In this document: positions 2,016 to 27,730 of the stretch, one piece after another
Layout: each line of letters opens with the position of its first letter
Numbering within the stretch: the stretch's first letter is position 1
Source: Candidatus Marinacidobacterales bacterium
GTDB taxonomy: Bacteria > Acidobacteriota > Vicinamibacteria > Marinacidobacterales > SMYC01
DNA length: 64,000 bases
Direction: 5' to 3'
Assembly: GCA_965237955.1 (NCBI GenBank)
Contig: OZ250169.1
Location: 3,520,001 to 3,584,000, forward strand
Position numbers and translations under genes: made by a program
The notes under the pieces: model-generated
Told to the model about the DNA's origin: nothing
Databases searched by the model: none
What the model saw: only the letters and a program-made list of their open reading frames with translations

Positions 2016-3102
2016 TGCCTTGGTGCACAACTCCGATAGAGGCCGAGAGCTCGCTTGGCCCCGACTCCCATCATCCGATCATCTCGCTATCAGGCATCCC
2101 GAGCGCCGTCATCGTGTTGAGAATCTTGCACCCGATCCTTGCCTCGACTCTCTGTGCCGCCAACCCTCTCGCTCGCATCGCTGAGCCCACGATAGCCTTG
2201 TAGCGATGGAACGTTGTCTCGACTTTGCTCCGTTTGCTGTAGCCCGATTCTGTGTGCCACTTTCGTTTGCCGAGCCGAGCTTGTGCTGCAATGTTGCGAT
2301 TGCGCTGTCGGCTGCTCGCCGGCCCCGATGCGAGCTGGGCGCCCTTGCGCGGCGGTATCAGCACCCTCGGCGAGCAATGAGCGCTGTGATTCTCGATTGC
2401 CTCATAGACGCCGCCGGCGTCGTATGCGGTGTCAGCTCTGGCCGATGAGATGGGACTGTCGATCTGTCCGACAAGCGATGCAACCCGCGATGAATCGCGG
2501 GCTCTTTTGTTCGTCAGCTCGCCGGCGACGACTTCGCCACTCTGCTCGTCGACACACAGATGGAGCTTGCGATAGTCCCTGCTCTTTGGTGCTCTGCGCA
2601 GCTGGCCGGCGTGGACAGCGAGACCGCTGCTGTCGATCAAGATGTGCAACGGCGTCTTCTGCTTGTCTTGGTAGAAGGGGACCTTACCCAGCTTCGCCTT
2701 GCGCCTCGAGATCGTGGTGTGATCGGGCACATCATTGTCTAGCTTCATCAGAGCGAACAACGATCGCAGCAATCCCTCGCTCTGCCTAGATGACAGATGA
2801 AACACCATGCCCAGGGTGACAGCCGTCTCGATGGCGTGGTTCGAGTACTTGCGTTGACGGCCCGGTTTCCTCCTCCTCGGCCGGGGCGCGTCCCAGTTCA
2901 CAAGCTTGCCGGCGGTGAGCGAGATCCAGACGGTCAGGCTCCCACGGTTGCGTAGACCCGCCTCATATTCACGCCAATTCCTCACGCGATAGGCCTTCTT
3001 CACATACTTCCGCTGAGTGCGTTTGAAAATGCTCATGGGGAACCTCGAATCCGTGAGTAAAGGATAATTGTGGACCGAGATCGCGAGTTGTGCACCAAGG
3101 CA
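2016..3102 (-). mobile_element. IS5-family (IS903-like) element, copy 1, 1087 bp; transposase 2071-3036
   Basis: Perfect 18-bp TIR TGCCTTGGTGCACAACTC. YRVRNWREYEAGLRNRGSLTVW N-terminus and DDE motifs (IDSSG, ADTAYD, YSKRSKVET). Near-identical copies elsewhere in the window. Confidence 0.95.
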
Positions 3103-3955
3103 TCGGCGCGCCGCCGAGGAGGATCATATCGAGGCTGCTGGTGTCGTAGGAGCCGACGTCCGGGAAGTTCGTCAGAAAGTTGATCATGGTTGGCACGAGA
3201 ATCGTCTTGGTCACTCGGTGCGTTTGAATCGCCTCGAGCGTCCCCGCGGGCGTGAACTGGCCGAGAAAGACGTGCGTCCCCCCGACCATTGTGACCGAGT
3301 AGCAAGCCCACGCGTCCGCCAGGTGGAACATGGGAGCAGCGTGAAGCCAGACATCGCGCTCTCGGAAGCCGGCGGTCATGACTACGTGCTGCGCATTGGA
3401 GACGACGTTTCTCTGGCTGAGCATCACGCCTTTCGGGAGACCGGTGGTGCCGCCCGTATAGCAGAGGTTCAGCATCTCGTTCTCGTCCCAGCTGCGAACG
3501 GAAGTTGAGAGTGGCTCGCTACCGGCGATGAGCTCCTCGTAGTTGACCATCCCGTCGACCCGCGCGTCATCGAGAAGAACGACATGCTCGATTCTCGGCG
3601 TCTTCTCGTGGAACTGCCGGTAGAGCTCGACGTACTCAGCCCCGACCAGGATTGCTTTGACGTCGCTATCGTTGAGGATGAACTCGAGCTCGTTTGCGGC
3701 TAGGCGGATGTTCAATGGTGCCAGTGGCATTCCAGCGATGTCCGCCACGAAATACGTTTCCCAGTAGCGGTGAGAGTTGTTCGCGAGGATGGCAATGTGA
3801 TCGCCGGGCTTCAACCCGAGCGAGAGCAGACCCGAAGCCAGACGGTGAACTCGCTCGTGTGCTTGCGCGTAGGTGAGCTCTAGATCTCCATCAACGAGCG
3901 CAGTCTTGGTGGGGTAGAGCTTGACCGCGTGACTCAGAATATCGCGTATCAGCAC
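3103..3955 (-). pseudogene. Long-chain acyl-CoA ligase (AMP-binding), N-terminal part truncated by IS5
   Basis: YTGGTTGLPKG AMP-binding motif, PMFH, GGAPM then IS sequence. GTG start after GAGGAG. Confidence 0.9.
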
Positions 3956-13903: not shown

Positions 13904-14449
13904 ATGGCCTGGATTCACATGATCCCCGAAGACGAAGCTTCCGGGAGGCTCAAAGAGCTCTACGACAAATACACGGAACCTTGGGGCGGCGTCGACAATG
14001 TTCTGAAGATCCACAGTCTCAACCCGCGGTCGATGGAAGCGCATTTCAATTTGTACATCGCCCTCATGCGGGGGCGATCCGAGCTGAGCCGCGAGCAGCG
14101 GGAGATGATTGCCATCGTCGCTTCAGTCGCGAACCAGTGTCACTACTGAATCAAGCATCACGGGGCGGGGCTCCGTAAGCTGACGAACGACGACGCATTG
14201 GTCGAGAAGCTCACGACCGACTGGCGCAATGCCGAGCTGTCCGATGCCGATCGGCGAATGTTGGAGTACACCGAAAAGCTGACGCTCGAGCCGTGGGAGA
14301 TGAACGAATCCGACGTCGTCGCCCTCCGCGACCAGGGTTTCAGTGACAGCGCGATCCTGGACATCAATCAAGTGACAGGCTACTACGCTTTTGCCAACCG
14401 TCTAGCCGAAGGCCTCGGCATCGAGCTAGAAGCGATCCATAAAGAATAA
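13904..14449 (+). CDS. AhpD/carboxymuconolactone decarboxylase-like peroxidase, probable selenoprotein (CHYU), 181 aa with UGA readthrough
   Basis: ORFs 13904-14149 and 14198-14449 are in one frame. TGA 14147-14149 is at the second Cys of the NxCxYCxxHH motif; AGGAGG RBS. Confidence 0.85.
14147..14176 (+). promoter_or_regulatory. Putative bacterial SECIS hairpin
   Basis: UGA, 10 nt, then ACGGGGC-GGG-GCUCCGU (7-bp stem with one G-U pair, G-first loop). Confidence 0.65.
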
Positions 14450-14489: not shown

Positions 14490-15839
14490 TCACTCGCTTC
14501 CGAGGTTCAATTCGCGCCGACGTTCCTGTTGCCACCGCCTCACGTCCTCTTCCGAGACGTCCGGATAGCTCCCGAGCGCCCAATCGAGACACGCGATGAG
14601 GTCGTCGGCCGCTTCCAGACCTACGCCCAATCGAACGAGTCTGTCGATACCCAGTGCCCGTGCCTCGTCCTCGGTAGCCCAGTACTCCGAAACCGATCGA
14701 TGGTGGTTCACTTTGGTCACGAGTCCGTCGAAGCTCAGGGCGTAGCGCGGGACTCGCGTCATGGCGAGCACGTCACAGAAGTGGCGCGTTGTATCCTCAT
14801 CCGCTCCATCGAGGCGGAAGCTGAGAAGCGAGCCGGGAAGCGAGTACTGGGTGGCGATGACGTCGGCGTCCGGATGCTCGGGAAGGGAAGGGTGGTGGAC
14901 TTCGCTGACCCGCCTGTGCCCCGATAGAAACGAAGCGACTGCGCTGGCGTTCCGACAACGTCTCTCGAAACGAGCCCTCGCTTCATCGAGCGCTGCCACG
15001 ATCGATTGCGAACGACGCCAGTCGAGGATGCCTCCGCGCATCGCCACCAGATCCATGACTTCGTTCATCTCTCGAATCCGATTCGATGCGATATAGCCCC
15101 ACATGTTCCTATCGCGCCCATCCATGGCTTTCGTGCCGCTGGAGATGACGTAGTCGACGCCGAGCTCGAGGAGAGGTGTGTTCGGAGCCCACGGAGTGGC
15201 GATGGTGTTGTCCACGATCGAGACGATGCGCGGACTCCGCTCTCTCGCACGCGATACGATAGCGACGAGCTTTTCGACGTCCACCGCTCGGGTGAGCGGG
15301 TTCGAATACGTCTCCACGAACACGAACCGTGTCGCCTCGGTGATGGCGCTCTCGACGTGCGCGAGCGAGTCCTCGGGTACGAGATCGATGCTGCCACCGA
15401 GACCTTCGGCGAGACGTTTCAGGTACGCCTTGGTTTTGTTGTAGCTCGCTTGCACGACGACGGCGTGCGTTCCCTGCTCGAACAGAACGTCGAAAAGAAG
15501 CGCCGCTGCGCCCATGCCGGAGTCGACTGCGATCGCAGCGGAAGCGTGCTCGAGCTTTTCGATCGCTGAGACAAGCGCCCGCGTCGATTCCGACCCGTAG
15601 CGCGCATAGGTCGTCGGTAGATGCGACCAACAATCTTCGGCGAGGAGGCTGATTCGTGCTTTTTCTTCCTGCCACGCGATCATGCGCGCCGAGCCCAGGA
15701 GGTCGAGCTGGATCGACTGGCCGTCTGGATGGAGAAAGGGTTTGCTGTCGCGGCGTATGGCGTCGTCGACGGCGTCATGAAGCTCGCGTGTGTCCGCACT
15801 CATCTCGGCGCGGGACGGTGGGTGGGTACGGTCGGCCAT
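14490..15839 (-). CDS. PLP-dependent Cys/Met metabolism family enzyme (divergent cystathionine gamma-synthase/lyase-like)
   Basis: YARYG, SGMGA, VETYSNP, VDNTIATP, SGTK (PLP lysine) and LVRLGVGLE motifs. Start uncertain (15854 or 15839); TATAAT at 15855-15860 on the minus strand. Confidence 0.85.
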   Translation of the reverse strand: MADRTHPPSRAEMSADTRELHDAVDDAIRRDSKPFLHPDGQSIQLDLLGSARMIAWQEEKARISLLAEDCWSHLPTTYARYGSESTRALVSAIEKLEHASAAIAVDSGMGAAALLFDVLFEQGTHAVVVQASYNKTKAYLKRLAEGLGGSIDLVPEDSLAHVESAITEATRFVFVETYSNPLTRAVDVEKLVAIVSRARERSPRIVSIVDNTIATPWAPNTPLLELGVDYVISSGTKAMDGRDRNMWGYIASNRIREMNEVMDLVAMRGGILDWRRSQSIVAALDEARARFERRCRNASAVASFLSGHRRVSEVHHPSLPEHPDADVIATQYSLPGSLLSFRLDGADEDTTRHFCDVLAMTRVPRYALSFDGLVTKVNHHRSVSEYWATEDEARALGIDRLVRLGVGLEAADDLIACLDWALGSYPDVSEEDVRRWQQERRRELNLGSE

Positions 15840-15872
15840 CAAGACTCGACGCACATTATAGGCTGGATGCGA

Positions 15873-16541: not shown

Positions 16542-16576
16542 GTTATGTATATAACATAATGACGTGTATGTAACAA
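16540..16576. promoter_or_regulatory. Tandem 18-bp operator-like palindromes in the divergent promoter
   Basis: ATGTTAT-GTAT-ATAACAT (16540-16557, perfect 7-4-7) and a 13/18 copy ATGACGT-GTAT-GTAACAA (16559-16576). Confidence 0.6.
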
Positions 16577-16659
16577 ATTCTCTATAGTTTCTTGGTCGTG
16601 GTGGGCCAGCAGTCTAAACTTCCACCTTGTTTGATGACAACCAACAGGAGGACGTGAAC

Positions 16660-16845
16660 ATGATGGCAACCATGACGATGGTGGAATGTCCGGTCTGCGG
16701 TGGTGGAGAAGTCGCTATGTCGCCGGACACCGTCGTGAACGAGCTACTCGATTGTGGCGAATGCGCGAGCGAGCTCGAAGTCGTCTCCCTCGATCCCCCG
16801 AGGCTCGAGGAGGCCCCCGAAGTCGCCGAGGACTGGGGTGAGTAA
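16660..16845 (+). CDS. lysW: Amino-group carrier protein LysW
   Basis: CPVC...CGEC zinc ribbon, acidic, C-terminal EDWGE; AGGAGG RBS. Confidence 0.97.
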   Translation: MMATMTMVECPVCGGGEVAMSPDTVVNELLDCGECASELEVVSLDPPRLEEAPEVAEDWGE

Positions 16846-17707
16846 AACCTCTTTTCGGGTGGCGTTGCTGCACTCGGTCGTGCGGCAGGAAGAAAAGCTC
16901 TTGACGTCCGCGCTCGAAAAGATTCCCGGCGTCGACTGCGTCTTGGTCGATGATCGCAAGCTGAGCGTCGATCCACAACGAGCGCACGCCGACTTCGATG
17001 CGGTGATCGCCCGGAGCGTGAGCAGCTCACGCAACGTGGCCGCACGCCATTTGTTCGAAGCCGCCGGCGTACGGTGTTTCAACCCTGCCTCGGTCGCTGA
17101 GATCTGCAACGACAAGATGCGAACGTCGCTCGCGCTGATCCGAGCGCGCGTGCCACATCCGGAGCTCCGGGTCGCGTTTACGGAAGACTCGGCGCTCGAA
17201 GCCATGGACGAAATGGGCTATCCGGTCGTGCTGAAGCCCGTGGTCGGTTCGTGGGGACGGCTCATCGCGCGCGCAACCGACACCGACAGCGCCCGCAGCC
17301 TTCTCGAACACAAGGCGGCGCTCCCGAGCTTCCAGCACCACATCTATTATCTGCAGCGCTACGTCGAGAAGAACGGCCGCGACATCCGAAGCTTCGTAAT
17401 AGGCGAACAGTGTATCGCGGCGATCGTGCGCGTAAGCTCCGATTGGCGAACGAACACGGCGCGTGGCGCCGTCGCCGCCAACTACCCCGTGACTCCGGAG
17501 CTCGAGGCGGTCTCTCTCTCCGCGGCGCGTGCCGTCGGCGGCGGGATTCTCGCGGTCGATCTGTTCGAGACCGACGAAGGCTTTCTCGTGAACGAAGTCA
17601 ACGACACGATGGAGTTCAAGAACAGCATCGAGCCCACCGGTGTCGATATTCCCGGAGCGGTCGCGCGCTACGTCGTCGACGAGCTGCGAGCGGCCCAAGC
17701 AGCATAA
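16838..17707 (+). CDS. lysX: LysX/ArgX ATP-grasp ligase (LysW-amino acid ligase)
   Basis: YPVVLKPVVGSWGRL, EHK, GRDIR, WRTNTARG and NEVNDTMEFKN motifs; overlaps lysW. Confidence 0.95.
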   Translation: MSKTSFRVALLHSVVRQEEKLLTSALEKIPGVDCVLVDDRKLSVDPQRAHADFDAVIARSVSSSRNVAARHLFEAAGVRCFNPASVAEICNDKMRTSLALIRARVPHPELRVAFTEDSALEAMDEMGYPVVLKPVVGSWGRLIARATDTDSARSLLEHKAALPSFQHHIYYLQRYVEKNGRDIRSFVIGEQCIAAIVRVSSDWRTNTARGAVAANYPVTPELEAVSLSAARAVGGGILAVDLFETDEGFLVNEVNDTMEFKNSIEPTGVDIPGAVARYVVDELRAAQAA

Positions 17708-18744
17708 TGCGAATCAATATCGTCGGAGGATCCGGCTACACCGGTGGTGAGCTGCTACGCTTGCTGTTGTTTCATCCCGACGTCGAGATTCAGGGAACGA
17801 GCTCGGAAAGCCTCGCCGGAAAATCAATAGGTCGAGCGCATCCCAATCTCCGCGGGATGACCGATCTGAAGTTCTCGAAGCTCGACGAGATCGAGCCGGC
17901 CGACCTCGTCTTTCTCTGTCTTCCGCACGGGACGGCGTCGGAGCGGTGGGACGAGCTCTTGGGGCTCGCGCCGCGCATCATCGATTTGAGCGCGGACTTT
18001 CGTCTGCGCGACGACGGAATATACGAAAAGTACTACGGCCGCGAGCACCCGCGACCACCGCTTCTCGAGCGGTTCGTCTATGGTCTTCCCGAGCTGCACC
18101 GAGACGCTATCCGGGTCGCGAATTGGGTAGCGTGCGGGGGCTGCAACGCGACGGCCACAATCCTGGGCCTGTACCCGTTGGCCCGAGCCGGCCTCATGGA
18201 CGCGAACGCTCCCGTGATCGAAGTCAAAGGCGGTTCGAGTGAGGCGGGGCGGAAGGCGTCGGCCACGAGCCATCATTCGGAGCGAAGCGGCTCGGTGCGG
18301 GCGTACGCTCCGACTGGACATCGACACACGGCCGAGATCGCACAGGCGCTCGGGAACGGAACGCCGATGCCGGTGCACCTCACGGTGACGTCGGTGGAAA
18401 TGGTGCGGGGCGCGGTTGCGACGAGTCACGTCTTTTCGAGCGGTGACGTTACCGAGCGCGACGTGTGGCAGATCTATCGTGACGCCTACCGTGACGAGCC
18501 TTTCGTTCGCCTGGTCAAGGAGCGCCGCGGGCCGTACCGCTATCCCGATCCCAAGCTTCTCGCGGGGACGAATTTCTGCGACGTCGGCTTCGAGGTAGAT
18601 GCGGATACTGGCCGCGTCGTCGTAGTGAGCGCTATCGACAACCTGATGAAAGGCGCGGCTGGCCAAGCCGTTCAGTGCATGAACGTGATGAACGACCTGG
18701 ACGAAACCGCCGGCCTGACCTTCCCCGGCCTCCATCCACTCTAA
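17707..18744 (+). CDS. lysY: LysW-gamma-aminoacyl-phosphate reductase (LysY/ArgC family)
   Basis: IVGGSGYTGGELLRLL, DLSADFRL, YGLPEL, GGCNAT and DNLMKGAAGQAVQ motifs; TAATG coupling to lysX. Confidence 0.93.
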   Translation: MRINIVGGSGYTGGELLRLLLFHPDVEIQGTSSESLAGKSIGRAHPNLRGMTDLKFSKLDEIEPADLVFLCLPHGTASERWDELLGLAPRIIDLSADFRLRDDGIYEKYYGREHPRPPLLERFVYGLPELHRDAIRVANWVACGGCNATATILGLYPLARAGLMDANAPVIEVKGGSSEAGRKASATSHHSERSGSVRAYAPTGHRHTAEIAQALGNGTPMPVHLTVTSVEMVRGAVATSHVFSSGDVTERDVWQIYRDAYRDEPFVRLVKERRGPYRYPDPKLLAGTNFCDVGFEVDADTGRVVVVSAIDNLMKGAAGQAVQCMNVMNDLDETAGLTFPGLHPL

Positions 18745-18760
18745 GAGCTCCAAGAACCAC

Positions 18761-19387
18761 ATGTGTCGGTTTCTGATGATGCGGGGGGAGCAGCCGTTCG
18801 CGGCGCTGCCGGTACTCGAGTCGTTTCGAGAGCGGTGTCGTGACAGCCGTGAGTATCAGGGTCACGGCTGGGGAGCGGCGTGGCGGTCCTCGGGTGCGTG
18901 GTCGCGTTATCGTTCTCTGACTCCGATTTGGGACGATGATCCCGAGCTGCCTTCGGAGGTCGACTTTCTCGTGGTGCACGCGCGCAGTGCCTTCCGCGAC
19001 GAAGGCATCGACATCGAGAACAACATGCCCTTCTACCGTGGGGAGTGCGTCTTTGTCTTCAACGGCGAGCTTCAAGGAGTCCGCTTGCAGGTTCCAGGAC
19101 GTATCGGCGCAGAGAAGATCTTCAATCTCATAGAAGGGCGAGACGAGGGGGACCTCGATGTGGCCGTCGCCGCTGCCGACAGCTTGCTCGTCTCGAAGAG
19201 CGCACGTGTGCGCGCGATGAACCTGGCGCTCACCGACGGCGATCGTATCTATACGAGCTGCCGGTTCACGGAATCGCCGGACTACTTCACGCTGCACTAC
19301 CGAGAGGGCGCCCTCGCCGCAGTGTGCTCCGAGCGTCTCGACGACAGTTTCAAGCCGATGGCGAGTGGGGAGCGCCGCGTCATCTGA
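18761..19387 (+). CDS. Stand-alone class II glutamine amidotransferase / Ntn hydrolase (EgtC/Dug3-like)
   Basis: N-terminal MCR (Cys nucleophile), HGWG, HARSA, ENNMPF, FNGEL and VCSE motifs. Confidence 0.85.
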   Translation: MCRFLMMRGEQPFAALPVLESFRERCRDSREYQGHGWGAAWRSSGAWSRYRSLTPIWDDDPELPSEVDFLVVHARSAFRDEGIDIENNMPFYRGECVFVFNGELQGVRLQVPGRIGAEKIFNLIEGRDEGDLDVAVAAADSLLVSKSARVRAMNLALTDGDRIYTSCRFTESPDYFTLHYREGALAAVCSERLDDSFKPMASGERRVI

Positions 19388-20183
19388 CGTGCTGCTCGTA
19401 AAAGTGGGCGGGGGTGCCGCCATCAACCTTGCCGGGATTGCCCGCGATCTCGCGAGCCTCGACGAGCCCGCGATCGTCGTTCATGGTGCGAATGCATGCC
19501 GAGACGATCTCGCGGAGCGTCTCGGTCACCCGACGCGCACGATCACGTCGGCGTCGGGCGTTTCGAGCGTTCTCACCGATGCGGACGCGCTCGACGTTTT
19601 GACGATGGCGTACGCCGGGCTCGTGAACAAGCGGTTCGTTCATCTCTGCCAACAACAAGGCGTCAACGCCATCGGCCTCACCGGACTCGACGGTGCTCTG
19701 GTGCGTGGTCGGCGCAACCCCGGTATTCGAGTTCAGGAGAATGGAAAAAAGCGTCTCGTGCGGGATCACTCGGGAAAACCCGAGACGGTGAACACGTCGC
19801 TTTTGAGGTTGCTCGTCGACCAGGGCTACACGCCGCTTCTCACGGTCCCGATTCTCGACGAGCACGGTCTTCCCGTGAGCACCGAGAACGACAGCGTCGT
19901 CGCTCTGCTACAGAAAAGCTTGGGAGCCCGCCGGGTCGTGCAGTTGCTCGAAGCTCCTGGATTTCTCGAGGACCCGGACGATCCCGCGAGCGTCGTCGAC
20001 GAGATGCGATTTTCGGAGCTCGAGGAGCGGGCGCGCTCGGCGCGCGGGCGTTTCCAGCGAAAGCTCATGGGGCTTTCTGCAATGGCGGCGAGCGGTTGCG
20101 AGGAGATCATTCTCTCGGATGGAAGAAGCGATAGCCCGCTGAGCTCGGCGCTTGCCGGCCGAGGCACGCGGATACGAAGGTGA
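19365..20183 (+). CDS. lysZ: LysW-gamma-aminoacyl kinase (LysZ/ArgB family)
   Basis: VKVGG, VVHGAN, YAGLVNK, GLTGLDG and RDHSGK motifs; start may be GTG 19389. Confidence 0.93.
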   Translation: MGSAASSDVLLVKVGGGAAINLAGIARDLASLDEPAIVVHGANACRDDLAERLGHPTRTITSASGVSSVLTDADALDVLTMAYAGLVNKRFVHLCQQQGVNAIGLTGLDGALVRGRRNPGIRVQENGKKRLVRDHSGKPETVNTSLLRLLVDQGYTPLLTVPILDEHGLPVSTENDSVVALLQKSLGARRVVQLLEAPGFLEDPDDPASVVDEMRFSELEERARSARGRFQRKLMGLSAMAASGCEEIILSDGRSDSPLSSALAGRGTRIRR

Positions 20184-21307
20184 CGAACCCCTACGAGCTC
20201 GACGTCTACGGAAAAAGGGGCATCACGCTGGTGCGCGGGCAGGGGACGCGCCTGTGGGACGACGCGGGCCGCGAATATCTCGATTGCATGAGCTCCCACG
20301 GTGCCGCCATCCTCGGCCACGCGCATCCTGCGATCGTCGAAGCGCTCTCGCGGCAGGCAGCCGAGCTCGTTTCCGCGCCGGGCGCTTTCCATCATCCCCA
20401 AAAGACGCGCTTGATGAAGCGTCTGGTGGAACTGGCACCGCGGGGACTCGCTCGCGTGTTCTTGTGCAACTCCGGAACGGAATCCATCGAGGCGGCCCTC
20501 AAGCTCGCGCGCGCGAGCACGGGGCGGAGCAAGATCGTCGCCGCGAAGCGCGGCTTTCACGGGCGGAGCTTCGGCGCGATGAGCGCCACGTTCAGCCCTA
20601 AACAGCACGCCTTGTTCGCGCCCGTTGTGCCAGATGTCGACTTCATCGCGTACAACAAGACAGAGAGCCTCGACGAGGCCTTGGACGATAACGTTGCCGC
20701 TCTCGTGTTGGAGCTCGTTCAGGGGGAGGGAGGCGTGCACGTTGCCGCGCACGACTTCGTTGCCCGTGCTGCCACGCTGTGTCGAGAGCGCGGAATCCTT
20801 CTCGTCATCGATGAAGTGCAGACCGGCTTCGGGCGCACTGGAAGACTGTTTGCGTGCGAGCACTACGGCCACGACGGCCACGACGTATTGACGCCCGACA
20901 TCTTGTGTCTCGCGAAGGGCATCGCCGCAGGGTTCCCCATGGGCGCCATCGTCGTCCGTGACGGGCTCGAGTTCCCGCCGGGCACGCACGGCTCGACGTT
21001 CGGTGGCAATCCGCTCGCGTGCGCGGTCGCGAACACGGTGCTCGACATCGTGACCGCCGACGGGTTTCTTCGGGAGGTGGAAGCGAACGGCGTCTACTTG
21101 AGAAGCAAGCTCTCCGGGGAAGTCCGCGGCCTCGGTCTCATGGTCGGTATCGAGCTCGGTGAGCGCGCTCGCCCCTATTTGGACCGCTTGGCCGAGCGCG
21201 GTGTTCTTGCGCTGACAGCAGGCAAGAAAGTCCTTCGACTCCTGCCGCCATTGATCATCACCCGCGACGAAATTGAGCGCGCGGCCGAAGCGGTCCGGAC
21301 TCTCTAA
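20180..21307 (+). CDS. lysJ: Class III PLP aminotransferase (LysJ/ArgD family)
   Basis: NSGTESIEAALK, GFHGRS, ELVQGEGG, DEVQTGFGRTG, LAKGIA and HGSTFGGNPLAC motifs; GTGA overlap with lysZ. Confidence 0.93.
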   Translation: MTNPYELDVYGKRGITLVRGQGTRLWDDAGREYLDCMSSHGAAILGHAHPAIVEALSRQAAELVSAPGAFHHPQKTRLMKRLVELAPRGLARVFLCNSGTESIEAALKLARASTGRSKIVAAKRGFHGRSFGAMSATFSPKQHALFAPVVPDVDFIAYNKTESLDEALDDNVAALVLELVQGEGGVHVAAHDFVARAATLCRERGILLVIDEVQTGFGRTGRLFACEHYGHDGHDVLTPDILCLAKGIAAGFPMGAIVVRDGLEFPPGTHGSTFGGNPLACAVANTVLDIVTADGFLREVEANGVYLRSKLSGEVRGLGLMVGIELGERARPYLDRLAERGVLALTAGKKVLRLLPPLIITRDEIERAAEAVRTL

Positions 21308-21891: not shown

Positions 21892-22468
21892 AGGGCCCGT
21901 TCATCGGCGAAGTCCATGCCATCGCGAGCTCGCCCGTCATTGCCAACTGCAAGCGCACTCCCATCATGGGGTTGAGGCGGATGCGTCTCGACGGGCAGTA
22001 GTGTCCGTCGGATTCTGGAGTACCGGAACAACAACTCTTCGCGACAAAGAGCTCCTCCCAACCCGACCCTCAACCTCCATTGACGCCTACCCGTTAACGA
22101 CACGCTCTTGCTGTGTCTTGAACCTCGTCAACAGGCTTCGATGCCCACGTACAGGCACCGCGTCGAACCTTTTGTCTCTCGCGATGCGTCCGGATGAATT
22201 CTAAACGCCTGCCTCGTGAGGCAATTTCCCCTTCCACGGACTGACCCGCGCGATACAAAGGGCTATCCGTTTCAGCCCGAGCGATTGCGCTGCGCTACGG
22301 ACGGAGCGGCCATTGGCCGGACTCCGATGGCGCACCCGAGCTGCCCGGATTAGACTTCCTCGGCGGTCATCCGGGAGCGAGCCCGGTTGATGGCCGAACG
22401 AGCGCGTGAACGAAGTGTGAGCGCGCGGTGATGGAGTTTCTTACCAACTACGAATTGGAGGCGTTACC

Positions 22469-23417
22469 ATGCCGAATCTTCCCGGACGTCCGTTGGATTA
22501 CGTGGGGGCCGCTCTCGCGATGCTCTCGATCGTCCTGGCCCTGGCAGCGACGACCGCCGCACAAGCTCGACTGGAGGTTTCCCCCGAGCACTATCAGAAT
22601 CTCCGTTACCGCTACATCGGCCCGGTGGGGAACCGGGTGGCCTCCGTGGCGGGTGTACCCGGGGATCCCGCTGACCTATTACGTCGGCGCCGCTTCAGGC
22701 GGCATCTGGAGGTCGAAGGACGGGGGCGAACACTGGCGCCCCGTCTTCGACGACCAGCCCGACCACTCCATCGGGGCGCTCGCGGTGGCGCCGTCGGATC
22801 CTAAGATCGTCTGGGCGGGCACGGGCGAGACGCACATCCGCTCGAACGTCTCCCTCGGCACCGGCGTCTACAAGTCCACCGACGGCGGTGAAACGTGGCA
22901 CCACATGGGTCTCGCCGGGCCGAGTCGCACCTCGCGGATCGTCATCCACCCGAAGAACTCGGACATCGTCTATGTGGCAGCGCTGGGACACTCGCACGGC
23001 CCGCAGGCCGAGCGAGGAGTCTTCCGCACGGAAGGACGGCGGTGAGACCTGGGAGCACGTGCTCTTCGTGGACGAGAACACGGGGGCCTCCAGCCTCGAG
23101 ATGGACTCGAACAACCCTCGTATCCTCTTCGCGGGGATGTGGCAGATCGAGATCCACACCTGGGGTCGCGAGAGCGGTGGAGCGGGCAGCGGGATCCACA
23201 TGTCGCGAGATGGCGGCGACACCTGGACCAAACTCGAGAGGAACGGTTTGCCAAAGCTGCCGGTGGGAAAGGTCGGCATCTGCTTGACTCCCGCGGACTC
23301 GGATCGGGTCTACGCCTTGATTGAGACGGGCGACGGCGTGCCCAGCCATGGACAGGAGACAGAGAGCGGCGAGCTATGGCGCTCGGACGACGGTGGTAAG
23401 AACTGGCAGCTCATAAC
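22469..23417 (+). pseudogene. VPS10/sortilin-like BNR-repeat glycosyl hydrolase, N-terminal part, two frameshifts, truncated by IS5
   Basis: YRYIGP-GNRV, GAASGGIWRSKDGG, VWAGTGE and SRDGGDTW motifs across three frames; paralog of 53508-56642. Confidence 0.85.
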
Positions 23418-24504
23418 TGCCTTGGTGCACAACTCCGATAGAGGCCGAGAGCTCGCTTGGCCCCGACTCCCATCATCCGATCATCTCGCTATCAGGCATC
23501 CCGAGCGCCGTCATCGTGTTGAGAATCTTGCACCCGATCCTTGCCTCGACTCTCTGTGCCGCCAACCCTCTCGCTCGCATCGCTGAGCCCACGATAGCCT
23601 TGTAGCGATGGAACGTTGTCTCGACTTTGATCCGTTTGCTGTAGCCCGATTCTGTGTGCCACTTTCGTTTGCCGAGCCGAGCTTGTGCTGCAATGTTGCG
23701 ATTGCGCTGTCGGCTGCTCGCCGGCCCCGATGCGAGCTGGGCGCCCTTGCGCGGCGGTATCAGCACCCTCGGCGAGCAATGAGCGCTGTGATTCTCGATC
23801 GCCTCATAGACGCCGCTGGCGTCGTATGCGGTGTCAGCTCTGGCCGATGAGATGGGACTGTCGATCTGTCCGACAAGCGATGCAACCCGCGATGAATCGC
23901 GGGCTCTTTTGCTCGTCAGCTCGCCGGCGACGACTTCGCCACGCTGCTCGTCGACACACAGATGGAGCTTGCGATAGTCCCTGCTCTTTGGTGCTCTGCG
24001 CAGCTGGCCGGCGTGGACAGCGAGACCGCTGCTGTCGATCAAGATGTGCAACGGCGTCTTGTGCTTGTCTTGGTAGAAGGGGACCTTACCCAGCTTCGCC
24101 TTGCGCCTCGAGATCGTGGTGTGATCGGGCACATCATTGTCTAGCTTCATCAGAGCGAACAACGATCGCAGCAATCCCTCGCTCTGCCTAGATGACAGAT
24201 GAAACACCATGCCCAGGGTGACAGCCGTCTCGATGGCGTGGTTCGAGTACTTGCGTTGACGGCCCGGTTTCCTCCTCCTCGGCCGGGGCGCGTCCCAGTT
24301 CACAAGCTTGCCGGCGGTGAGCGAGATCCAGACGGTCAGGCTCCCACGGTTGCGTAGACCCGCCTCATATTCACGCCAATTCCTCACGCGATAGGCCTTC
24401 TTCACATACTTCCGCTGAGTGCGTTTGAAAATGCTCATGGGGAACCTCGAATCCGTGAGTAAAGGACAATTGTGGACCGAGATCGCGAGTTGTGCACCAA
24501 GGCA
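23418..24504 (-). mobile_element. IS5-family element, copy 2 (1087 bp; transposase 23473-24438)
   Basis: Same TIRs and near-identical transposase as copy 1. Confidence 0.95.
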
Positions 24505-24858
24505 ACGGTGTGGTGCAACGCAGAATGTTCGTTGCCGTGGCGACGATATCTGTGATCGTCCTGGCATGCATGGGAAGCCCGCCAGATAAGCCAAAAACTC
24601 CGGCCGATGTGTTTATGGAAACGTTTGCGTGGAGGGACATGGAAACGATAGAGGTTTTTCAAGATCGGTTCCCATCAGGAGTGTTTTTCAGGCATGAAAG
24701 CCGTCGAGGGGAGACGCGGGAGTTGAGGGCAAACTTTCCTGGCGGAGGCACAATCGTTTTGTTGGCGCGTCCGTGCAGCCCAATCGCTGGATCAGGACTC
24801 TGTGTCTGGACGGTTGACGTTGAATGAGATGAACCAATCCCAGATCGTCCGGTTGGCC

Positions 24859-24998
24859 CCGTCCTGTGCCAAAACTCGGCCCTATTGAAATAGACCATAA
24901 ATCAGCAGCTTAGTGTCTATGGTGCGCTCCCGTGAACGGCTTGGCGGGTTGCTACGTTTCTACCATCGGGAAGCCGCATGAGTATTTTGACCTCACGG
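24859..24998 (+). mobile_element. 140-bp miniature rve-type IS derivative
   Basis: Left end CCGTCCTGTGCCAAAACT...CAGCTTAG is joined to the last codons of an integrase (RERLGGLLRFYHREAA*) and the end TTTTGACCTCACGG; the same 3' part recurs at 63929-64000. Confidence 0.75.
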
Positions 24999-25006
24999 GG
25001 ACTTAC

Positions 25007-25212
25007 GGGTGCGAAGCTCACTGCCCGCAGCTCGCCCCGCAGCCGATTTGAGCCAGCCGTGCGTACCCCCGGTGGGCCTGTCGCTCGCCACCCGCAGCCC
25101 AGGGGTCGGAAGCCAGCCCTGCGGCGCGAAATACCCTCGATTCTGCGCGGATTCCAACTCATCCAAGCGTAAGTCCTTAATTTCCTGGGCGGAGCAGTTT
25201 TGACGATGCACA
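25007..25212 (-). repeat. Leader of the DUF2924 module, attached to a TGT-type IS end
   Basis: 25007-25158 is near-identical to 38139-38288 and 44788-44939. On the minus strand it is preceded by TGTGCATCGTCAAAACT...AATTAAGGACTTA. Confidence 0.7.
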
Positions 25213-25277
25213 ACATCTCAGCTCACGTCAAGGCTACGATTTAGAGAAAAGGTATATTTTCTATACTATAATAGCTC

Positions 25278-25541
25278 ATGCCATTTGAGTATGATCCCGC
25301 CAAAAGCGCCAGGAACAAGGCCAAGCATGGCATCAACTTTGATGAAGCCCAGGTGCTTTGGAAAGATGATCGGATGCTGGAAGCTCCGGCAAAAACCGAT
25401 GACGAGCCGCGTTTTCTGGTGATCGGAAAGATTGGCGAAAACCACTGGGCCGCCGTCTGCGCTCATCGTGGGGACAATGTGCGGATCATCTCGGTGCGGC
25501 GCGCCAGGAAACAGGAGATCGATCACTATGAAAGCAAATGA
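25278..25541 (+). CDS. brnT: BrnT-family toxin
   Basis: FEYDPAKSARNKAKHGINF, EPRFLVIG and RIISVRRARKQE motifs. Confidence 0.92.
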   Translation: MPFEYDPAKSARNKAKHGINFDEAQVLWKDDRMLEAPAKTDDEPRFLVIGKIGENHWAAVCAHRGDNVRIISVRRARKQEIDHYESK

Positions 25542-25743
25542 GTTCGACCGGAAATTTGATGCAGGAGAGGATGTTAGCGACCATGTCGACTGGTCGAAAG
25601 CAAAGCGCCCGAATGTGCAGGTAAGGCGGGTGAATGTGGACTTCCCGGCATGGGTTGTTGACGGGCTGGACCGTCACGCGCGGCACCTTGGCGTGACCCG
25701 ACAAGCGCTTATCAAGTTGTGGATCGCTGAACGGCTACAGTGA
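25528..25743 (+). CDS. brnA: BrnA/CopG-type antitoxin
   Basis: EFDRKFDAGED...RRVNVDFPAW...GVTRQALIKLWIAERL; overlaps the toxin. Confidence 0.88.
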   Translation: MKANEFDRKFDAGEDVSDHVDWSKAKRPNVQVRRVNVDFPAWVVDGLDRHARHLGVTRQALIKLWIAERLQ

Positions 25744-25920
25744 GGCGACGTCCGAAGCTTTGCCACCAACATACTAGGAAGTCAGCTCACCTGAGTCGGC
25801 TGACTCGTTCGACGCCAACTTGGCAGTACCGGTCGAAGCGTTGCGCGCCGGTCAAGGGACACACATTTCGCTAAGCCACCTGATGAAAGACTTGCCTCGG
25901 CCAGCCTATCTGTCCAGAAT

Positions 25921-27284
25921 GTTGCGCCCCTGATTTCTTGGACAGAACGAGCCCACCATAATCAAGCAGCCGGTTCGAGCGCAAGACGTTCTCGCGCCTG
26001 AATCGGAGATTGAAATCCAAGGCGCTCGATCAACCAGGATCGGTTGTAGAGAGCGCGGAACTCCTGAAGGGCGTGAACCAGTTCCGGTATGGAACGGAAG
26101 TGGCGAACCCAGAGCAATTGTTCCTTGAGCGTTTTGAAAAAACGTTCGATGCAGCCGTTGCCCTCGGGTTCACGGACGAAGGCGGGCGAGAACTCGATCC
26201 CGAGGAACCGGATTTCGTTCTGAAAGTCATCGCTCATGAACTGCGATCCGTGATCGTGGCGAAGCTGGAGTCCTGTCGCGCCATGGGCGTGAAAGCCACC
26301 GAAGTGCTCGTTAACGCCTTGCCGGATCGGGTCCAGGGCCTCAAAACGAGTCGCCCGTTTGACCGCATGGATGCCGACACACTCCGCAGTGCAATGATCG
26401 ACTGCGGCGAACACGGTGACCTGGCCCTCCTCGATCGTCACGGTGGCCGTGGCGTCAATGCCCCACATCTGATTCGGGCGCTCGGTCACGATGGTTCCGG
26501 TATGCACCTTCTCGGCGACGGGCGCCGCTTGCCGCTGGGGCGCCAGCAGCTGCGCGTCCCGCATCAAGCGCAGGACCCGGGCCTTCGAGGTCCGGACACC
26601 CGCGATCCGGAGCCGGGCCCAGAATTTACGATGGCCTTCTCCGGTAAACGGCGAGGCCGCGATCTCCTGCCGGAGCCGTTCGGTCAGTTCCTTGTCGCTG
26701 AACGCGGTCTTCGGTCCGCGCTTGCGTGCCTCGAGCGGATTGTGCCGCCGAGTCCGTTGCCAATAGTACGTCGACCGGGGCACGCCCCAGGCCCCCAAGA
26801 CACGGGCCAGACCATACGGCGTTCCGGTGGAGGGCGACTTGGTCCGGCTCATCTGTTCGACCTCCATCGTAGAAAAGGGTTCTCATCCTCCAGCTGCCGG
26901 ATGCGTTCCTTCAACAGATCGTTGTCCATCACCAGACCGGTCACTGCGGACTTCAGCGTCTTCTTCTCCTCGTCCGCCACCTCCCTCGTCCGGCTCTTCA
27001 GCCCGTCCTCGCCTCCTTGCAGAAACGCATCGCGCCAACTCGTCACCGCGTACTTCCGGCTCGTCGCCTCCAGTTCGACGCCACGCATTAGCTCTAGCAC
27101 CACCGTTACCTTCCGCCGGGCCGACCAACGGACCTTCCCGCGTCGCGCTGAATCCGGGGCCGCTTCGGTCGCCCTACGGGCTCCTTGCGCCGCCCTCGAT
27201 TCTATATTTCTTCCTCTGGACATCGTGATCCTCCTGTTCGGTATTCTCTCAAATCACTGTCCAAAGAAATTGTGGGGCGGGGGA
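25921..27284 (-). mobile_element. IS3-family element: orfA 26849-27223, orfB 25962-26867
   Basis: rve DDE motifs (WGIDAT, RHDHGSQF, GNGCIERFFKTLKE). Imperfect terminal repeats CGCCCC..ATTTCTT(T)GGACAG. CCCTTTT slippery motif at the orfA/orfB overlap suggests a -1 frameshift. Exact ends uncertain by a few bp. Confidence 0.9.
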
Positions 27285-27584
27285 ATGAAGATTACTGTCA
27301 AGGATAACCGGCTCATTAAGTACATTCTGACGCTCGCCGGAGAGGTCGAAGACGAGCTGTTCGTCTCGGAAGTGGTGAACGAGGAACTCTACGATTTGAT
27401 CGAGGACCCCGGCGAGCAGAAGAACTCGCTTCCCGAGAGGACCACCGATATCGGCCCGTTGCGCCGCGATGCCCTCTTTTTACTGGAAACGGCCCGGACC
27501 CTACAGGCCAAGCGACGGGGCCAGGAAGTCGTTCTGGATGAAGGGCTCTCGGAGCGCCTCAAGGCCCTGGGCTATATCAATTAG
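27285..27584 (+). pseudogene. C-terminal fragment of a sulfatase
   Basis: ELYDLIEDPGEQKN...ERLKALGYIN; the 5' part is replaced by the IS3 element. Confidence 0.75.
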
Positions 27585-27730
27585 TCATGCGCGGTCTGCC
27601 GTGACCGGAACGCTTTCCAGCTCTCATCGCTCCCTGAAACGGCGGAGTTTCGTCGAACTGGCCCTTGGATCACGCTGGCTCGGCTCCACGTTCGGCTTCC
27701 ACGAACATACTGCTATGGCCATGGGCGGTA

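Follow-up and report, generated by a model that had tools for sequence, protein, structure and literature searches.

The 64,000-nucleotide stretch analysed here (the window) corresponds to positions 3,520,001 to 3,584,000 of contig OZ250169.1 (assembly GCA_965237955.1) of Candidatus Marinacidobacterales bacterium. It carries an operon for synthesis on LysW (an amino-group carrier protein, AmCP) that has no lysK and contains instead a gene for a small N-terminal nucleophile (Ntn) protein of class II amidotransferase type, a candidate for the enzyme that releases the product from the carrier. The gene order is lysW-lysX-lysY-Ntn-lysZ-lysJ, all on the forward strand (Table 1), and all six genes were found where the initial annotation of this DNA had placed them, tightly packed or overlapping. 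Four of the five junctions overlap (by 8, 1, 23 and 4 bases, the 23 bases being common to the Ntn gene and lysZ), and a gap of 16 bases separates lysY from the Ntn gene. LysW is an acidic zinc-ribbon carrier (isoelectric point, pI, 4.05) with four cysteines and the C-terminus EDWGE; the position of lysJ is also kept in related operons. A contig of another public run covers 17043-21053 with 29 differences and no gap, and so the order of the genes does not stem from misassembly. The source genome is a single contig of 8.13 Mb, 97.96% complete and 6.2% contaminated, and the nearest relatives of the operon are from Acidobacteriota.

Table 1. Genes of the LysW operon and features upstream of it, with positions in the window
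Feature	Position	Strand	Evidence
lysW, amino-group carrier protein, 61 aa	16660-16845	+	TIGR01206, 58.9 bits versus cut-off 53.2; PF21344
lysX, ATP-grasp ligase	~16838-17707	+	TIGR02144, 318.6 versus cut-off 275.6; GTG start at 16838 inferred
lysY, LysW-aminoadipyl-phosphate reductase (ArgC family)	17707-18744	+	TIGR01850, 407 versus cut-off 233.6
Ntn gene (class II amidotransferase/EgtC-like), 208 aa, N-terminus Met-Cys-Arg	18761-19387	+	Fold, residues, synteny
lysZ, LysW-aminoadipate kinase	19365-20183	+	NF010659, 237.5 versus cut-off 223
lysJ, class III aminotransferase	20180-21307	+	PF00202; under the cut-offs of TIGR00707 (argD, just under) and NF042418; named by context
Divergent gene with C-terminal ACT domain, 222 aa	15873-16541	-	PF13840, E 5e-4
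Weak sigma-70-like promoter match, 5' of lysW	16559-16588	+	9/12 matches

The Ntn protein matched curated families weakly (PF13230, E 0.008; PF13522, E 0.004) and had no match to an M20 family. It scored 40.1 bits against the EgtC family (TIGR03442), far under the cut-off of 218.65, and its context is lysW-X-Y-Z-J and not ergothioneine synthesis, placing it outside EgtC proper. A PF13230 search of the genome missed the Ntn gene itself, which is therefore far from that curated family. Relatives numbered 2385 at E up to 0.001 among 2639 candidates, and 307 among 50% representatives. The AlphaFold model (predicted local distance difference test score, pLDDT, 94.2) has a predicted fold of the Ntn and not the M20 kind. 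When it was compared with 48,161 chains, the top 11 matches were all class II amidotransferase-type domains (Z 14.6-22.9), as expected of the alpha-beta-beta-alpha Ntn fold; they included EgtC (Z 22.9, root-mean-square deviation 2.3, 195 residues, 22% identity), GlmS (20.6), PurF (19.7), SPO2029 (18.7) and AsnB (14.6). A single-sequence search of the PDB with the protein found nothing, and a profile of 83 homologues matched SPO2029 (3mdn) and EgtC by sequence.

Cys2 is present in 105 of 106 proteins from the loci and in all 83 distant homologues, and Arg75, Asn101, Gly102 and Gly116 are invariant in 106/106 locus proteins. The cysteine, Asn-Gly and arginine are named as catalytic and glutamate-pocket residues of human GFAT-1 in the consulted part of PMC7000685, and were mapped here by motif. 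As judged from the predicted structure, the protein folds like an N-terminal-cysteine (Ntn) amidohydrolase and has the catalytic residues of one. It resembles EgtC (PDB 4zfj/4zfk/4zfl) and SPO2029 in its stand-alone fold, N-terminal cysteine and DGWG/HGWG, HAR and NG motifs. It differs from EgtC in having glycine for the aspartate of a TDSE motif, in sitting in lysine operons and in its proposed substrate, a protein-linked amide; EgtC hydrolyses a gamma-glutamyl amide. The fold and the Cys, Asn-Gly and Arg residues are common to the glutaminase domains of GlmS, PurF and AsnB, whereas the synthase domain of those enzymes is absent.

SPO2029 and an unlinked homologue (L210) have G-x-T-D-S-E aligned with the family motif G113-R-I-G116-A-E-K, and the TDSE aspartate is glycine in 106/106 and 83/83 family members, while three unlinked homologues in lysK genomes keep TDSE. 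This aspartate presumably binds the free alpha-amino group of glutamine; if so, Gly116 would suit a substrate with its glutamyl nitrogen tied up in a peptide bond and its alpha-carboxylate free, like the terminal residue of LysW. The protein has no obvious general basic surface for the acidic carrier (pI 5.1; family median 7.0); Arg or Lys is kept in the family at positions 3, 27, 75, 79, 108, 114, 119, 146 and 151. Two longer proteins, P0121 (477 aa) and P0253 (356 aa), match just a portion of the Ntn query and are possible fusions or frameshifted calls.

The protein might be an ordinary glutaminase, or a small-molecule gamma-glutamyl hydrolase like EgtC, YafJ or Dug3, which feeds glutamate or ammonia and leaves LysW untouched. 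It shares fold and catalytic core with glutamine-hydrolysing class II domains and its relatives are named 'glutamine amidotransferase' in databases, both as this would have it. However, the invariant loss of the TDSE aspartate, which the unlinked homologues retain, argues against such a role, which would also leave the pathway without a release enzyme and the Gln-ended carriers described below unexplained. The neighbours of the 208-residue protein are lysY and lysZ, and no ammonia-accepting enzyme is present in the operon (longer fused relatives were not searched for). To our knowledge free ammonia is not consumed anywhere in the LysW pathway, and we consider a glutaminase role very unlikely.

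In the available text of PMC12998189, LysK is named as the LysW hydrolase. No gene of this genome is over the LysK cut-off (TIGR01902), the best score being 99.4 bits versus 163.1, at a locus without lys genes; as a control, the cut-off was passed in 4 of 14 control genomes. M20 peptidase matches (PF01546) number 27 in the genome and none of them lies in the window. The statement of the initial annotation that neither operon nor window holds an M20 peptidase thus stands, and the genome-wide search for lysK that it proposed returned no true lysK, though unrelated M20 peptidases are present. The best candidate among these, of 342 aa (C1:6262956-6263984), was considered as lysK and rejected; it scores under all the cut-offs for ArgE, DapE and LysK, and no lys genes lie near it.

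Repeated DNA begins at about 21635, and a multi-copy insertion sequence (IS) of 1.1 kb, with dozens of near-identical copies in the genome, lies at 23416-24507. The initial annotation had cautioned that lysK could have been lost to this mobile DNA after lysJ. That explanation was rejected: a LysK-like gene within 1.5 kb after lysJ was found in none of the 53 related loci with at least 1.2 kb of sequence there. A copy of the lysJ 3' end (163 bases, 97.5%) was seen at C1:3981354-3981514 (L183), where it stops 2 bases past the stop codon beside an IS gene, which suggests an IS-linked rearrangement at the operon end; no M20 match was found at that copy. The mobile DNA is dense over 22274-27600, where 22274-23418 is repeated DNA, two small genes at 25278-25743 form a pair which we take to resemble a BrnT/BrnA-type toxin-antitoxin, and there is a gene at 25962-27223 that is presumably an IS3-like transposase.

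A species-genome collection yielded 547 stretches with a relative of the Ntn gene, and the best 80 were analysed. All 80 of these nearest loci carry LysW-pathway genes (all five in 52, four in 7, three in 7, two in 12 and one in 2). They are distributed over Gammaproteobacteria (32), Acidobacteriota (21), Calditrichota (5), Ignavibacteria (3), Thermodesulfobacteriota (3), Phycisphaerae (2) and others, with 11 unassigned. LysK over the TIGR01902 cut-off was found in none of the 80 genomes, in which the best scores (116 bits or less) lie away from the operon. A distant subfamily was followed with 14 of the 83 homologues as query; of 254 metagenome loci, the 79 best were inspected. In 76 of these 79, lysJ lies directly upstream of the Ntn gene, the other three having fewer than 160 bases upstream, and the LysK query matched none of the 79. 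Operons of the lysK type have the order W-X-Y-Z-J-K, with lysK after lysZ in 5 of 11 from the phylum of genome G057; the distant-subfamily Ntn gene, directly after lysJ, is therefore in the usual place of lysK.

Where the operon is split, the Ntn gene stays with lysW-X-Y in some genomes and with lysZ-J in others. Eighteen genomes with split operons were checked for lysX, which was over its cut-off in 10, present as pieces at contig ends in several more and absent in 3. Over 64 loci, Ntn distances track those of lysY (Spearman 0.83) as well as lysX distances do (0.83). Some loci have unusual content. In L213 (G030:C138), an operon with a Gln-ended carrier, two lysX genes over cut-off lie about 1.9 kb apart around lysY, by duplication or misassembly; L271 has the Ntn gene twice (604-1266 and 3026-3688) in one contig of 4.3 kb; and in L155-L157, L162 and L233-L311, which belong to the distant subfamily, lysY and lysZ have between them a second homocitrate-synthase-like gene, a divergent one with 24-33% identity to the query.

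Mutual exclusion of lysK and the amidotransferase gene, which the initial annotation had put forward as a check on its proposal, was then found in genomes picked by lysX and not by the Ntn gene, except for three centre genomes that were Ntn by choice. In the phylum of the window, 33 of 301 genomes have lysX, 18 with the Ntn gene only and 15 with lysK only; beyond these 33, one genome has an Ntn remnant (G106) and two have lysK in broken or cut operons (G239, G299). Of 241 genomes in the phylum of G057, 12 have lysX, 11 of them with lysK and the twelfth being the Ntn centre genome, and in the class of G044 (151 genomes) all 11 with lysX are of the Ntn type, 10 besides the centre. The 56 lysX genomes in total comprise 30 with the Ntn gene and 26 with lysK, none with both and none with neither. 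A search of the 17 lysK genomes in the window's own phylum with a broader Ntn profile turned up no family members. Three weak profile hits in other lysK genomes (41-48 bits) were rejected as family members, being proteins of 283-285 aa that have TDSE and lie away from the operon.

An operon tree was built from concatenated LysX, LysY and LysZ of 96 loci without an outgroup, leaving out loci with missing or short genes and the duplicate L144. The lysK operons form one side of a single branch (SH-aLRT, the approximate likelihood-ratio branch test, 99), so that genome counts overstate the independence of the lysK/Ntn pattern. The pattern is one of stable alternative states after one or few swaps, and not of many repeated swaps.

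The last residue of LysW, Glu in this window, is Gln in 45 of 83 Ntn-type carriers but in 0 of 27 lysK-type carriers, and in 6 of 20 from the distant subfamily. The operon tree requires 13-14 switches between Glu and Gln, all of them outside the lysK clade, whose share of the branch length is 7.0 of 23.5 units (30%; rough p 0.007). LysX requires a gamma-carboxylate, and a terminal Gln must therefore be deamidated before loading. Deamidation is what this fold catalyses, and the Gln-ended carriers are the strongest sign that the gamma-amide at the end of LysW is where the Ntn enzyme acts.

The same carriers could point to maturation or repair alone, in which the Ntn enzyme would convert Gln to Glu or remove wrong residues and a generic ArgE/DapE-type M20 peptidase would release lysine. 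Gln-ended LysW is common in Ntn operons, generic M20 genes are present in this genome and in all five Ntn genomes tested, and Thermus LysK also acts on acetylated substrates (from the part of PMC12998189 seen), so M20 enzymes can be broad. Against this, the Ntn gene is intact in 38 operons with Glu-ended LysW, that of the window included. Maturation alone also leaves unexplained both the exclusion among the 56 lysX genomes and the occurrence of the Ntn gene at the position of lysK, and the low best LysK scores in the 80 Ntn genomes, away from the operon, do not favour it. We regard this alternative as quite improbable.

The product of the operon is most likely lysine rather than ornithine, to judge from the predicted enzymes. 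LysX carries F186, I196, T207 and N262-S263 (counted from the GTG at 16838 and mapped by hand), with the spacing of the aminoadipate-type signature, given as F-I-T-NS with set spacing in the accessible text of PMC12998189. An upper-pathway cluster at C1:7499226 holds a homocitrate-synthase-like gene, one of the homoaconitase family and a homoisocitrate-dehydrogenase-like gene. The first and the last score under their cut-offs, but the synthase has 60% identity to the one found within related LysW operons. A close homocitrate synthase is found in 30 of the 83 Ntn-type loci with lysW. There is a separate arginine cluster (L181 8506-12794; G000:C1:3.82 Mb) with argC and an N-acetylornithine carbamoyltransferase over its cut-off. 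It also includes a 364-aa gene without an NCBIfam match at E 1e-25, and a matching acetylcitrulline deacetylase was not identified.

Taken with the genomic and structural data, these results make it likely that the Ntn protein is a cysteine amidohydrolase which would release lysine from LysW and deamidate Gln-ended carriers. The basis of this reading is the observed gene content, fold, conserved residues and distribution, from which we infer the steps of the mechanism. The non-orthologous replacement of LysK suggested in the initial annotation is thereby supported, lysK over cut-off being absent here and from the 80 Ntn genomes and the two genes never co-occurring in the 56 lysX genomes. In the proposed mechanism, LysX would load alpha-aminoadipate, supplied by the operon at C1:7499226, on the gamma-carboxyl of the C-terminal Glu of LysW, and LysZ, LysY and LysJ would convert the loaded carrier into LysW-gamma-lysine. 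After removal of Met1, Cys2 would attack the gamma-amide carbonyl, with Asn101-Gly102 as the oxyanion hole, Arg75 holding the free C-terminal carboxylate of LysW, and Gly116 in place of Asp leaving room for the LysW chain. Lysine would leave, and water would then cleave the thioester, restoring LysW-Glu. A terminal Gln would become Glu by this same chemistry, and this would explain why Gln-ended carriers are tolerated in Ntn operons.

Alternatively, a new alpha-aminoadipate might attack the thioester with its amino group, so that an ArgJ-like transamidase would exchange lysine, or the amide of a Gln-ended carrier, for fresh substrate. The pathway would then be cyclic and save one ATP, LysX would only top it up, and Gln-capped pro-carriers would be genetically encoded, by analogy with ArgJ beside ArgE. 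ArgJ (ornithine acetyltransferase) and ArgE are two unrelated enzymes that take off the amino-protecting group in arginine synthesis, an N-terminal-nucleophile enzyme and an M20 peptidase. In the text of PMC3249071 available, Ntn enzymes pass through an acyl-enzyme intermediate and ornithine acetyltransferase resembles Ntn hydrolases by convergence. ArgJ differs from the Ntn enzyme in transferring an acetyl group and in its topology, and here transfer stands only as a rival reading. A transamidase could load a Gln-ended carrier directly, and all the synteny and exclusion evidence fits it equally well. Yet essentially every operon keeps lysX, those with Gln-ended carriers included, and most split operons keep it in their other half, whereas its loss would be expected somewhere if it were dispensable; G078, the only one-contig genome without lysX, is also without lysW. 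EgtC, which matched best by structure, bears the title of a hydrolase. On this evidence we hold transamidation to be improbable.

Several observations weigh against the proposed release function. Any of the 27 M20 matches of this genome could encode the release enzyme, and two of the generic ArgE/DapE-type genes kept in the five Ntn genomes tested are over the TIGR01910 cut-off. Many of the 80 Ntn genomes are incomplete. The operon tree provides one independent lysK/Ntn pair, and the single-gene trees need 1-4 changes. Literature searches gave no source for the role assumed for the TDSE aspartate. G078 has Ntn-lysZ-lysJ (L082 8001-10573) with no lysW or lysX found, which may reflect a remnant, a gap in the assembly or use without a carrier; in G106 there is no more than a shortened Ntn match and a piece of lysJ. 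The genome of the window has lysA, dapB and dapF besides, and therefore the LysW operon is not its only lysine route. On the side of the proposed function, in 13 of 18 other Ntn genomes of the same phylum (91-100% complete) lysA was not seen, and four genomes (G084, G092, G020 and G060) have no PF02784 match at all, so that LysW is their only recognisable lysine route. Locus L029 (G025) was dropped from this group, since a PF02784 match is present there and a close homocitrate synthase is not.

Upstream of lysW, the protein cluster of the divergent ACT-domain gene was found head-to-head with lysW in 19 of the 80 related loci and also next to the distant Ntn subfamily, and it was unmatched in all lysK-type loci examined. 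Its product is likely an amino-acid-sensing regulator of the operon, and probably an uncharacterised lysine-sensing one. The promoter search gave 2 sigma-70-like matches versus 0.8 expected in shuffles, which is not evidence of function, and a terminator scan of the window was at chance level. An RNA run yielded 9 short pieces, which mostly did not resemble the window. A Cys/Met-metabolism pyridoxal-phosphate enzyme, under all NCBIfam cut-offs, is encoded at 14490-15854 (reverse strand) and adjoins the ACT gene here and in L014 only. Two short neighbouring open reading frames of 81 and 83 aa (13904-14449, forward strand) are split by TGA at 14147-14149 after a C-H-Y motif; we take them to resemble halves of a peroxidase-related AhpD-type protein, with selenocysteine read-through possible.

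LysK of Thermus, Deinococcus, Sulfolobus and Haloferax (M20, ArgE homologue; TIGR01902, NF003367) has the reaction and the place in the pathway proposed here for the Ntn protein, and its place directly after lysJ is also that of the distant Ntn subfamily. The two differ in fold (an Ntn sandwich with N-terminal Cys versus the metal-dependent M20 fold) and in size (208 versus about 340-400 aa); they never occur in the same genome among those examined, and Gln-ended carriers were found only in Ntn-type operons. A comparable case is Pup of pupylation, a small protein conjugated through the gamma-carboxyl of its terminal Glu and encoded with a Glu or Gln end (PMC2588565, part of the text). The two endings are those of LysW in Ntn operons. 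Dop, of glutamine-synthetase fold, both deamidates Pup and removes it. This double role is like that proposed for the Ntn enzyme, though Dop acts in protein degradation and no homology is implied.

As the initial annotation had supposed, the replacement is apparently undescribed: our literature search found no paper linking LysW to such an Ntn enzyme (the available portion of PMC9570651 included), most subscription AmCP papers lying beyond the search. The terms Ntn, EgtC and amidotransferase have no occurrence in the accessible main text of GapMind 2026 (bioRxiv 10.1101/2024.10.14.618325). In the genome paper of Caldithrix abyssi, LysWXZYJ and Hcs are reported in one locus and non-orthologous displacement is suspected (PMC5317091, consulted in part).

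The operon is a real and widespread variant of the LysW lysine pathway with a proposed, apparently undescribed release enzyme. Release from amino-group carriers is assigned to LysK alone in the literature searched, and the Ntn protein would be a second, unrelated and metal-free enzyme for this step. If so, it would close the gap already noted for Caldithrix abyssi (PMC5317091, as cited above), give a function to a family with 547 matching stretches in the species-genome collection, and explain the Gln-ended carriers, which LysX should be unable to load. As an isopeptidase, too, an Ntn amidase adapted to a gamma-glutamyl amide linked to a protein would be of use. Lysine synthesis on LysW would then extend to many Acidobacteriota, Gammaproteobacteria, Calditrichota, Ignavibacteria and others.

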